Below are positions 11,101 through 53,962 of a stretch of 63,040 nt of DNA, one piece after another. The stretch comes from Carcharhinus longimanus (Eukaryota): assembly GCA_030264375.1 (NCBI GenBank), contig JASCQW010000190.1:22143512-22206551 (forward strand), read 5' to 3'. The notes beneath the pieces were generated by a model that was not told the origin of the DNA, did no database searches, and saw only the letters and a program-made list of their open reading frames with translations. The stretch's first letter is position 1; each line of letters begins with the position of its first letter. Position numbers and translations under genes: made by a program.

Positions 11101-11186
11101 CTCAGCAGCCTGTCCGTGGTTCTACCCTGTGGTAGAACAGCATGACGTAACCTACCATAGGGTAAAACCACTGGTAGGTCACAGAG
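11101..11186 (-). ncRNA. MIR140: microRNA miR-140 precursor hairpin (5p 11152-11173; 3p about 11112-11134)
   Basis: Minus strand reads CAGTGGTTTTACCCTATGGTAG (5p) - GTTACGTCATGCTGTTC loop - TACCACAGGGTAGAACCACGGAC (3p). Arms are complementary, with a lower stem CTC..CCT/AGG..GAG. Lies in the WWP2 intron equivalent to mammalian intron 16. Confidence 0.98.
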
Positions 11187-18027: not shown

Positions 18028-18189
<162 letters not shown>

Positions 18190-23565: not shown

Positions 23566-23720
23566 AGTTCTGACAGTAGCTTTTTTTTTTACCTTGTATA
23601 ATTTCTCCCTTAGTTTTAAGCTGTATTCTTGTTTCTGCCCTGCTTTCCTTCAGTGAGGGGACTGAGAGGGGGATCATTTGAGCCTTTGGTGGACAGTGAA
23701 CTTCTCCACAGTAAACAAAA

Positions 23721-24030
23721 GTATCGTTTCACATTCATCTGTAGGACTTGAAACTCCCTGCTCCTTTTTTCTTCTAACAGTGACATAATCTCCCAACTAT
23801 TGGTCAGAGATAATACTTGCAAAACACACCAACCAAACATTGTCAAATCTGCTTGTCAAAACCAGCCACTCAAACGTATCGTTTCACATCCATCTGTAGG
23901 ACTTGAAACTCCCTGCTCCTTTTTTCTTCTAACAGTGACGTAATCTCCCAACTATTGGTCAGAGATAATACTTGCAAAACACACCAACCAAACATTGTCA
24001 AATCTGCTTATCAAAACCAGCCACTCAAAC
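23721..24030. repeat. Tandem duplication, 2 x 155 bp
   Basis: 23721-23875 repeated at 23876-24030 with 3 transitions. Confidence 0.95.
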
Positions 24031-26008: not shown

Positions 26009-26218
26009 CTCTCACTGGAATACGTGTTCCAGACACACTGACTCTGACTGGGGTACAGTTCCACACACATACTGACTCTCACTAGGGTATGGGTTCCACA
26101 CACACTGACTCTCACTGAGGGTACAGGTTCCACACACACTGACTCTCACTAGGGTACAGGTTCCACACACACTGACTCTCACTCGAGTATCGGTTCCACA
26201 CAAACAGACTCTCACTGG
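26009..26218. repeat. Minisatellite, about 33-bp unit, about 6 copies
   Basis: Tandem CTCTCACT(G/A)GGGTACAGGTTCCACACACACTGA variants with no spacers. Confidence 0.9.
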
Positions 26219-29762: not shown

Positions 29763-29870
<108 letters not shown>

Positions 29871-32567
29871 TCATCAACCTGACAATGCAAACATTACAAA
29901 TGCCAATTTTTAATTCTGTGCTGTCTTATTAACTGCCAATTATGTTATTAGACAAGCTGATATATTTTATGAACAATTCAGAATGGTTTAGGAATATTGT
30001 GGGCCAACAAAGTCAGATCAAGTGGCAAGTGAAAGGACATCTTCTATCAGTTCTGTGAATGGAAAGTTAAGCAGCAGCGACAAGACAGCTGCATACTATA
30101 GGGCTATTAGAGTTATGAAATAAGGTCCCAGTACAGGCAGACAGTCAAAGCTGTCCATTACTCCAAAAGTTTCAGTGTCACAGTTGGCTTGCAAGTTTGT
30201 ATGTCCCATGTCGGAGAAATAAAAAGCGTCTGTCTGCATCGTGCTGTGAAAAGTGAACCTCTTGCCAGCTGTGTCACTGAACACCACAAGTGTTTAAAGT
30301 CAGTGAGGTTTACAGCTTAACTATTTGTGACTCCACTTTTAAAATCCTCACCCTCTGGAGGATAGGTACAAGTGAAAAGGTTTGAAAGAAGAAAAGTACA
30401 GGGCAAAATTGAACCTTTATAAAAATTCTCAAAAGTGCACTAGTTCTGCTGTTATAGATTATTTTCAGCTGACTGTTACCATTTTTTTGGTCTCATGTAC
30501 CTTTCTGATGATCCACCAGTTTCCTTTAAATAAATTTTAATTAAATAAAAGTAGTCTTCATTCTGAGGAAACAAGTATTTTACCAGTTAAAAGCCAGATC
30601 TCTCTTTTTGAGAAATATATGAAAATATCACGAAAAGTTCAACAACACTGCCTACCAACCCCAACAACAACTGAATTATTGTGTTACTGCTACTACATTG
30701 AAGAGAACTACTTCTTACCACCCACTTTGCGGTCTGCCAGCCTCACAGAACATGTACACGATTTAGTATAGAGAAAAACAACAGACCTAAATTAATAAAT
30801 AGTCCAGCCCATTCACTAATAAAAAGCTGTCATCCATTTTAATATCCTATGATTCCATGTTGACCCTCATGCTTCTAGTTAAAGCAAATCAACTCCAGAT
30901 GTAAATCAGAAGAACTACTGAATCTCTTTCAATTGACAAATGTTCATGAACTACCATGATTACAAAGAAAGTGGCTATAATAATTCACTTTTTCAAAAAG
31001 AAAATTAAGCACAAGGACTTGTGTAAGAAGCTAGAAATTAGGAAATTCTGTGAAATTATTTGGGCTTGGTTATGGCAAATGACTTAACTTTCAGCAGAAC
31101 TGCTGGGTGCATGGGAGCTAAGGAGTTCCATAGATTATGGAAGAACTGAAGAAAGAATATGACAGATATATGCCAGCTATTCTATTTAACTCTTGCCTCC
31201 TATGCCAACTCACAAAGTAGCACTGTTACTTCCTAAGACCATTCCTCTATTCCCTTTTCCCCTACACAAAAGTCACTGCTTTAGATCCAAATTAAGGTTA
31301 GGTAATTAACTTGCTTTGCAAACAAAGCAAAACATGTTGATCCATTATCAATAAGGGATTATTTATGGTTTATATGCCATTTGGAATGTTTTCCGTGTCT
31401 CTTGTATTCTTTCATCTTGCAAAAGATAGCATTGTTTAAGCCAAAAGTAGAAAGAAAATTATACTAAGGTGCCTAATGAGGTAGGAGGACCAAGCACACC
31501 CATTCTGCAGGGAATTTAAAACGCAGGGAGATTTTTTTAAAAAAGGAGAGGCATCACGAAATTGATATTCCCAGAACATAAACTTCAGGAACACCTTAAG
31601 TGATTCATCACTTCACTATATCACAATGATAATCAGTTGCCACACACCAAGATCACAATCTCATTTGCATTGTTAGCGAGTTTGAGAAGTTCCCAAGTTA
31701 ATTCCATATATTCCCCATGGGCTGAGAATATCAGAGTGACCACTATCCTCAAACTGTGGAAACCAGCAGAAACTTTCATGAGCCAAGACTGCAAACTTTA
31801 AAAAATACAAGTGGGCACTAAACGTTTCTGATCTTTTCAGTGCCATTACTCTTTAGCAACAACAACAACTAACGACACATAGGATCAGTAAGCACAACTG
31901 ATATTCAATATCATACAACACAGCACAATGCTGATAGGCAATAAAACAGTTTACACTATAACTTTTCTTTGGAAAATTGTAGCATTATGGTGTCAATATA
32001 TCAGTACCAATATATTTCAACAAATGCTGAGGCCACAAGGGTGCATGTTCATTGTCAATATTTCTGTCTGCTCCTTAATGGTACACCAGTGTAGCTATGC
32101 CAATGATAAAAGGTTACATTTTAGGATTTTTCTTGCAGAACTACAATTTAATATTCTTTTGAATTGAATTTAATGTGCCAAGATTAATATGACAAAAAGA
32201 ATACCATCTCAAAGTCGAATAACAAATAAAATGTTGGAGTGAAAAGCAAAGTATCACTCCGAGTAGTAAGTTTCACTAAATAGCTCATGACTATGAACCA
32301 CATGGCTTGCTTACGACTACTGAGTTTCTAAAATTGTAAAAAGACGGAGGTTGTATTTTTTAAAGAGAAATCAAGTATCTTGTAACAGAACAGAAAACTA
32401 CTTTCACTGAAATTCAAATCATTTAAGTGACTTTTAAACAATACAAAATTATTTTTACTTACAATTATATGGCAAAAGTGGCAAAGACAGCAACAAAATG
32501 CTTCAATTTAACACAAAATAGAATTGAAAAAACTCAGCTCAATTAAACATTAATCACAACTACTTAC

Positions 32568-32622
32568 CCCAACCAGCAAGCAAAGGACCGAGTGCATCGT
32601 TGTCAGTAGAGATCCCAGATGA
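32568..32622 (-). CDS. WWP2: WWP2 exon, linker and start of WW3 (55 nt; about exon 11)
   Basis: TTTTCTGTTATAG|TCA..., SSGISTDNDALGPLLAGW + G|GTAAG; phases 0/1 match neighbours. Confidence 0.93.
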
Positions 32623-33120
32623 CTATAACAGAAAAGATAGAAATCCAGCATATTGTTACTCGATAGAATGATTACGGTATTAAGATTGCGTTATCACATC
32701 ATACTGTAATTTTTTTGTAGGTCTCCCAACTGGTCTCTTCCTTTTTAATCAATTCTTGAAATTTAGTAGCTGCAGAAATCTTCATCTTTCAAATGTATGC
32801 AATGAAAGCTGAGGTTTTCTAAAGCAATTACACCTCTACATACACATTATAAGAAGCTCTTGCAAGACAGTTTAAAACTTCTTCATAGATCAATTGTAAA
32901 ACACTAACTGTCTCAATGCTTTGACTGATACTGTTGACTCAGTCAGTTGAAATTGCACAGTGCTGCTGTGAGTCTCTCTCTCTCTCCAAGATCTACACAC
33001 AGAAATCACAGGCTGTACTAATGAAATCATTACTGCATGATGTGTACGCCCAAGCTTGCTGCCTGCAGTGTGTGTTCAACCTTTCTCAATGTGCTGTTAA
33101 TGTAACAGTACTCTGCTATG

Positions 33121-33230
33121 TAAATTATAACTGAGGGGACATTCATGTTCTTTCCAGACAGACGCCCTTCCCCAGTATGAATGTTTTATTCATGCTCACA
33201 AAAGCACCTTTATTCTGAATGTAAATGAAT
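33121..33230 (-). promoter_or_regulatory. Candidate internal (WWP2-C / pri-miR-140) promoter with paired SoxE-type sites
   Basis: Perfect inverted ATGAAT-N5-ATTCAT (33177-33193), second imperfect pair ACAAAAG-cac-CTTTATT (33198-33214), minus-strand TATAAT-like box at about 33124-33129; non-repetitive DNA about 0.5 kb upstream of the 55-nt exon. Confidence 0.5.
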
Positions 33231-34489
33231 GGCAATGAGGCGGCTGCTCTGCCCCAACCAAGCTGTGCCGCTCAGAGTAAAGGAAACTGATCATGACTAA
33301 TGTTTTGGTATTTACATTACTAGCCCAGTGTTGTGCCAAAACTACTTGGCATATTGTCTGGGATGAGCCATTTTGCACTGCTTCTACAAATATCCTACAG
33401 CAAATTCATTGAAATTGTGATTACTTCTCAATTGCTCAACTTGATTCCAGTGTATTAGAGTTTCCATTAACATACCAGACCATGTACTTTATCACTGTCT
33501 TTACCTAATGGCCTAAATAAGTCAATGGCACTGGTTTTGTAACTCCACCATTTGAGTGCCTGCCTCTCATCCAAAGCTTCAATTTGGGACTTCAAGGGCA
33601 GCCTTGAGCATCACTCAAATTTGCCAATCTCAGTTGGGGGTGTTTGTTCAGCAACTACATTACAGAGGGAAAATAGGTCCAATCCATTTTTGTTCAACAG
33701 AATCAAATGGTCTTATAACTCAATCTCAGTAAATTTTCTGGTATGGGTGGGAATATAGCACAGATCCAATGGCCTTTGGTAAAGAAAGAGTACCCAACTC
33801 GGATACCAATATTGGGCAAGACTATGCCAGTATCAAGATTCTAAAATTCATCATATAAACATTGCTTCATTAAATTGAAAAAATAAATCCCCAGTACATT
33901 TTCTTTCTTTCAATTGCATCTCATATCTGGAATGCCAAGGAAATGTTCATGACTAGACAAGTCAGATTTTTTTTTTAAAAAGACTGATCTCTCCAGGATG
34001 AATTCTGCCAAATCAATTCCATCATTGAAAGGGTAAGTTGTAATATGAACCTTCAGTTTGTGCAGGTCGTCTATAAATTCATTTGTAGTTCATTAAATAC
34101 AAATCATGTAATTGTGTCATTTCAAATGAAAAACTAAAATTGGTTCGCGTTTCTCAATAAGATTTCTGAATGAATCACATTCTAAATATACTGCTCCCAT
34201 ACATCAAAGTACAGATGATATTAAGTACTGTTGAGAACCTCACTTATTGTATCACAGCATATGATTTAGAAAGATTATTCAGTTGATTTACTTCTCCAAA
34301 AAAAAAATGTATTTTGTTTCTCCTGGGAACATAATATTTTTTCTATATAAAGGTTGAGTAACCACATATTGTTTGTCACAAAAATTAAATACAACAAGAA
34401 AAATCTAGAGAATTAATACAAAGTGGCATGGTTTACCAGATTAAGAGTTTCTGGGGAAAAATCATCTGATGTTAAGCTGATTGCTATGA

Positions 34490-51070: not shown

Positions 51071-51253
<183 letters not shown>

Positions 51254-53851: not shown

Positions 53852-53962
<111 letters not shown>

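Follow-up and report, generated by a model that had tools for sequence, protein, structure and literature searches.

A candidate internal promoter with SOX-type motif pairs upstream of miR-140 in a shark WWP2 gene

A promoter for WWP2-C/pri-miR-140 has been described within the mammalian WWP2 gene (Yang 2011; Yamashita 2012, both as cited via PMC9181530, PMC3978709 and PMC10988806). The question raised by the Carcharhinus longimanus locus is whether a shark WWP2 gene carries a counterpart in the same intron, and whether a cluster of SOX-like motifs found there is part of it. The DNA analyzed is a stretch of 63,040 nt, referred to as the window. The reading preferred here, with a probability of roughly two in three, is that positions 33059–33360 are an internal promoter acting under SOX9-type dimers in cartilage and starting a shorter miR-140/WWP2-C transcript. 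That shark WWP2 produces an internal transcript is, by itself, highly probable. SOX9 binding, cartilage specificity and the transcription start site are predicted by analogy with mammals.

One study of shark and skate cartilage infers conserved SOX regulation from co-expression, with skate chondrocytes co-expressing Sox5, Sox6 and Sox9 (PMC7217701). The WWP2 block is a short, single-copy and strongly conserved candidate SOX target with defined sites. If the preferred reading is true, the cartilage promoter of miR-140, a microRNA tied to skeletal growth and osteoarthritis, would date to before the split of sharks and bony fish; this would confirm the expectation of specialists rather than overturn it.

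Gene layout and motifs of intron 10

A tblastn search with two shark proteins shows the exons of a WWP2 gene on the minus strand of the window, at positions 53941, 51251, 32622, 29845, 18163, 16557, 15349, 13797, 8781 and below. The WW2 exon (51077–51251, minus strand) has 97–100% identity to chondrichthyan WWP2 sequences, with 100% to the Mustelus asterias protein. Counted back from miR-140 it is exon 10, and it forms the upstream border of the intron with the candidate promoter. It is followed on the same strand by a 55-nt exon (exon 11, 32568–32622), which is placed by both tblastn and RNA contigs, by the WW3 exon (exon 12, 29764–29845), and by the WW4 exon (exon 13, 18029–18163), which carries the MIQE start codon at 18162. 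The miR-140 hairpin is found at 11105–11183 (minus strand) in intron 16 with an Rfam score of 103.5 bits (cut-off 70), and is a single locus in the whole genome.

The motif block is situated at the 3′ end of the intron between the WW2 exon (51251–51077) and the 55-nt exon (32622–32568), so that the exon map bears out the location given in the original prediction. This intron is intron 10, as counted back from miR-140 in intron 16, and miR-140 lies six introns downstream of it. The mammalian internal start is likewise placed in intron 10 (PMC3978709; review PMC9181530; PMC10988806). In a scheme with 25 exons the ATG has also been put in exon 14, one above the numbering used here (PMC3978709); despite this offset of one, the six-intron distance agrees between the shark and mammal schemes. 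The shark genome has three SoxE-type genes. Intron 12 of the window also contains, at 23716–24030 and 26026–26217, a 155-nt tandem duplication (97% match) and a 33-nt minisatellite, and the window has 695 N in several short runs.

The motifs themselves are present much as the original prediction described them. The palindrome ATGAAT-N5-ATTCAT is found exactly at 33177–33193; read as SOX heptamers, it has 1 + 2 mismatches and a 3-nt spacer and is a predicted SoxE dimer site. The second, imperfect pair, first placed at 33198–33214, is an inverted SOX-like pair at 33197–33214 with 2 + 1 mismatches and a 4-nt spacer. Additional TGAATG/CATTCA half-sites were also claimed, and TGAAT/ATTCA half-sites are present at 33141, 33178, 33188, 33216 and 33226. 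Two tandem TGAATG half-sites occupy 33216–33231 on the plus strand, the second an exact Col2a1 Site-2 heptamer, and may be of the SOX5/6 type. Another exact Site-2 heptamer, CATTCAT, is at 33140–33146 (plus strand). CATTCAT thus has three copies within 92 nt (33140, 33177 and 33225), and no other such cluster occurs in the window. The minus-strand TATAAT lies at 33129–33124. Together with an initiator match with +1 at 33103, this weak TATA-like sequence forms a candidate core promoter (33100–33129, minus strand); another initiator match puts +1 at 33178. The description of the DNA as repeat-free holds in that 32623–33700 has no further match in the genome and contains no called tandem repeat, but a short (TC)n tract is present near 32975.

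The SOX pairs and the TATAAT are individually unremarkable, and the motifs alone are weak. The segment does contain inverted SOX-like heptamers 3–5 nt apart with 1–2 mismatches each, but so do 552 places in the window (8.8 per kb), both pairs having three mismatches to the textbook SOX9 consensus (consensus and 3–5 nt heptamer spacing from PMC4787819). Perfect 6-bp inverted repeats spaced by 4–6 number 80 in the window. The minus strand has 30 copies of TATAAT, and the one at 33129–33124 fails TATAWAW. Of 200 window shuffles, 41 contain a cluster of five TGAAT/ATTCA per 100 nt. Two features are more unusual. One is the exact palindrome, which arises in 1 of the 200 shuffles, for a motif picked after being seen, and has 612 copies in the 2.68-Gb genome, or one per 4.4 Mb. 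The other is the set of three CATTCAT within 92 nt, reached in 12 of 1000 shuffles; here the heptamer comes from a paper, with the test set after the site was seen. The palindrome-plus-ACAAA pattern occurs twice in the genome, the other copy being G000:C128:17644282-17644307. A comparison of the 612 palindromes with a control count of 124 was rejected as a sign of enrichment, the control differing in word composition, and a consensus-only SOX9 scan was discarded as support, the site not being singled out by it. A literature search for a paper source of the ATGAAT half-site as a genome-wide SOX9 motif found none.

RNA and protein isoforms of an internal transcript

Six of 24 sequencing runs were aligned (the whole-genome sets X1–X7 and X9–X14 and the runs X19, X21, X23 and X24 were left out), and four runs were compared across this region, X15, X17, X18 and X20, all from organisms other than the window's species; no RNA record is listed for the window itself. 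X17, X18 and X20, which represent three organisms and three studies, contain RNA, as contigs of each join 32568 to 29845 across GT..AG ends. In all three the spliced contig and the 55-nt exon share exactly the same first base, and the spliced contigs (1442, 3123 and 1527 nt) run unbroken through the donor of that exon into the WW3 exon. A second contig in each run overlaps the spliced contig by 28–30 nt and then continues for 310–545 nt of intron sequence; its far side carries no loose end. These extension contigs cover 32593–33167 in X17, 32595–33044 in X18 and 32595–32931 in X20. Three of the four runs accordingly contain RNA in which intron sequence, and not the WW2 exon, leads into the 55-nt exon; the fourth, X15, displays neither an extension nor the splice joint.

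A branch of this kind arises where two upstream sequences are joined to one acceptor, here that of the 55-nt exon. Besides the intron sequence, the other is presumably the WW2 exon, which lies outside the stretch compared with the RNA contigs. General carry-over of intron sequence is an unlikely cause of the branch, because the spliced contigs are 1442–3123 nt long and cross the donor of this exon unbroken. The intron-derived 5′ extension (32623–33167, minus strand as taken from the gene) would then be the first exon of WWP2-C/pri-miR-140. X17 also has low-level intronic contigs with a depth of 3.5–3.7. The lack of cover in 30687–32519 is given no weight, since divergence or filtering can produce such a gap. 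The start near 33095 given in the original prediction is not pinned by these contigs, whose ends cannot mark starts. The X17 extension passes 72 nt beyond it, and also beyond the TATAAT. Either transcripts start further up, e.g. at the initiator with +1 at 33178, or low-level intronic reads have lengthened the contig. None of the three extension contigs crosses the palindrome.

Two other uses of the runs were rejected. X8 and X22 were considered as possible same-species RNA, but they look like DNA at low cover with the sequence of the window. Isolated X15 and X16 contigs were considered as open chromatin, but these runs had been selected through sequence words taken from the stretch itself, with no library type on record. 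In intron 11, X15 and X17 contigs align to 30123–30646 at roughly 85–95%, possibly representing a second conserved intronic element or a repeat.

Protein annotation also includes a short product. A cluster of 431–433-aa proteins beginning at the WW4 exon methionine contains teleost, bird and mammal isoforms. In RefSeq, 433-aa WWP2-C isoforms with the MIQE start are annotated in six sharks and rays as automatic models, in which the first exons are not visible. Exact look-ups of 15 chondrichthyan C-terminal parts returned annotated RefSeq isoforms in five cases, namely Amblyraja radiata, Cetorhinus maximus, Leucoraja erinacea, Chiloscyllium punctatum and Hemitrygon akajei (the last with a query part from Hypanus). 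Stegostoma tigrinum, the sixth species, was found separately from the 15. The other 10 of 15 look-ups, including Mustelus asterias (the closest named relative) and Callorhinchus milii, gave no WWP2-C isoform. The MIQE start named in the original prediction is thus both an ATG at 18162 in the window and an annotated start in six chondrichthyans.

No earlier in-frame start reaches MIQE in the window. The acceptor TAG of the 55-nt exon is an in-frame stop that ends the frame of the intron extension ahead of this exon, which leaves MIQE as the earliest start that can be used. The product from MIQE is 433 aa long and consists of WW4 plus HECT. A modelled leader (32568–33167 joined to 29764–29845) contains 12–14 upstream ATGs, and four out-of-frame open reading frames overlap the MIQE start. 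With this number of upstream ATGs translation would be poor, and miR-140 would therefore be the main output. In the mouse the skeletal phenotype tracks miR-140 and not the WWP2 protein, which a poorly translated leader would fit (review PMC12463553).

Other isoforms of these proteins were observed. Isoforms that skip the 135-nt exon at 18029–18163, and so are 45 aa shorter with neither MIQE nor WW4, are annotated in seven chondrichthyan species including Callorhinchus; the same skip in the internal transcript would delete the WWP2-C start. A further annotated Amblyraja isoform of 490 aa (P0266) starts within the WW2 exon and may indicate another internal start upstream. Hagfish WWP-type proteins P0019 and P0289, putative relatives of WWP2, have no methionine at the MIQE position, and thus the arrangement may be an invention of jawed vertebrates.

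Conservation of the 33059–33360 block and its possible functions

The non-coding block 33059–33360 is conserved in one further organism, termed organism G (X15 and X16, two samples of one study), where contigs align to 33059–33338 and 33106–33360. Identity over 33059–33338 is 98%, compared with about 91% in neighbouring pieces. This contig has four substitutions (33175, 33269, 33274 and 33325) and one gap, a 1-nt insertion after 33105; the 33106–33360 contig has five other letters, and X16 has one additional difference near a contig end. The TATAAT, both SOX pairs and all half-sites are unchanged. Organism G thus has 5 changes over 280 nt of the block, whereas its other compared pieces, which are short and selected, have 12 over 127 nt (Fisher p 0.0008; a 31-nt overlapping piece is left out of the 127-nt count). 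At the WW3 exon the alignment of the organism G contig breaks off after 34 nt of the following intron. In X17, 40 of 51 substitutions fall in 32629–32959 (12.1%), with at most 4.5% over the rest of the contig. Constraint thus rises towards the block.

The 38 unchanged motif bases in organism G are expected with p 0.02–0.14, for motif conservation in one organism. The SOX motifs are not singled out, because the entire segment of about 300 nt is conserved. A metagenome scan for vertebrate WWP2 exons 11–13 kept 80 of 226 loci with a best identity of 68%, none of them vertebrate WWP2.

Conservation of the whole 300 nt, rather than of the motifs alone, bears on who drives the promoter. SOX8, SOX9 and SOX10, as members of the SoxE family, are able to use the same type of site. 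The internal promoter could be real and yet owe most of its activity to different factors or different tissues (lineages with SOX8/SOX10, or factors outside the SOX family), with the SOX-like words riding along. Equally good consensus pairs occur at the background density given above, and all three SoxE genes of the shark could use such a site. However, the cluster of three exact Col2a1 Site-2 heptamers is unique to this place in the window, and the position matches that of the SOX9-bound mammalian promoter. This alternative is unlikely, although it survives better than the others.

Somewhat less probable still is that the block is an enhancer for the full-length WWP2 promoter and that the RNA represents partial intron retention or enhancer RNA, and not a first exon. 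In human cells the promoter that a region near the WWP2-C start contacts and regulates is the full-length/N one, not that of WWP2-C (PMC10988806). The extension contigs have far less depth than the spliced contigs, their ends differ (33167, 33044 and 32931), and 3′ bias on intron-retaining RNA could look similar. However, the branch occurs at this acceptor only, and the extensions stop within 550 nt though the DNA upstream aligns well in organism G. The MIQE-start isoforms annotated in six species also argue against it.

It is very improbable that the block is an RNA-processing element, i.e. an intronic polyadenylation site or a cryptic acceptor: two sense-strand AATAAA hexamers (33214 and 33190, spanning 33185–33214) lie inside the SOX pairs and are unchanged in organism G, and the X17 contig ends 17 nt below the second, but the X17, X18 and X20 RNA lies downstream of the hexamers, on the wrong side for a 3′ end, and there is no loose end marking a splice into the extension.

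With an internal promoter under SOX9-type dimers as the preferred reading, SoxE dimers would bind the inverted pairs at 33177–33193 and 33197–33214, and SOX5/6 would assist at the tandem half-sites. Polymerase would start somewhere in about 33100–33180, giving a first exon made of the last 480–550 nt or so of the intron plus the 55-nt exon. miR-140 would be cut from intron 16 of this internal transcript, which could also encode the 433-aa WWP2-C from MIQE. A wider proposal, for which the odds appear about even, is that one ancient 300-bp promoter from the jawed-vertebrate ancestor links SOX9 to miR-140 and is near-frozen in elasmobranchs, the transcript being mainly a microRNA carrier. If so, it would be direct cis-regulatory proof of a SOX-trio cartilage circuit in sharks, and the block would work in mouse or zebrafish chondrocytes.

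Relation to known systems

No description of a shark WWP2 internal promoter was found in the literature searched, from which subscription journals are mostly missing. The chondrichthyan papers listed in one search contain no mention of wwp2, those listed in another none of miR-140, and the papers listed for wwp2 together with shark cartilage are unrelated. Conservation of the intragenic structure wwp2~Mir-140 is already recorded for Chondrichthyes along with four further branches of gnathostomes (PMC11848845). In the portions available that work concerns host-gene position and targets, whereas the shark case concerns an internal promoter. A review reports upstream SOX9 sites of miR-140 in human, mouse and zebrafish (PMC9181530), and WWP2 is a SOX9 target common to mouse and chicken (PMC6715657).

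The Col2a1 intron-1 SOX9 dimer site is similar to the shark palindrome in combining a high-affinity CATTCAT with an inverted half-site of two mismatches; this validated site is likewise a 1 + 2 mismatch pair (PMC2952863). The Col2a1 site is an enhancer, however, and the shark site a candidate promoter (PMC2952863). The 3-nt spacer between the heptamers of the shark palindrome is within the reported 3–5 nt (PMC4787819).

The closest known system is the mammalian WWP2-C/pri-miR-140 promoter. Host gene and intron are the same, six introns upstream of miR-140; the product has the MIQE start and WW4 plus HECT in both, with 431 aa in mouse and 433 aa in elasmobranchs; and inverted SOX-like pairs lie upstream of the inferred start. 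The distance from promoter to miR-140 differs, being about 22 kb in the shark and about 8 kb in human (PMC3978709). The mammalian promoter is SOX9-bound, whereas for the shark SOX9 binding and cartilage activity are predictions. Both the mammalian promoter and the chondrichthyan linkage of WWP2 and miR-140 are already known, and the shark promoter is most likely the expected counterpart of the former.
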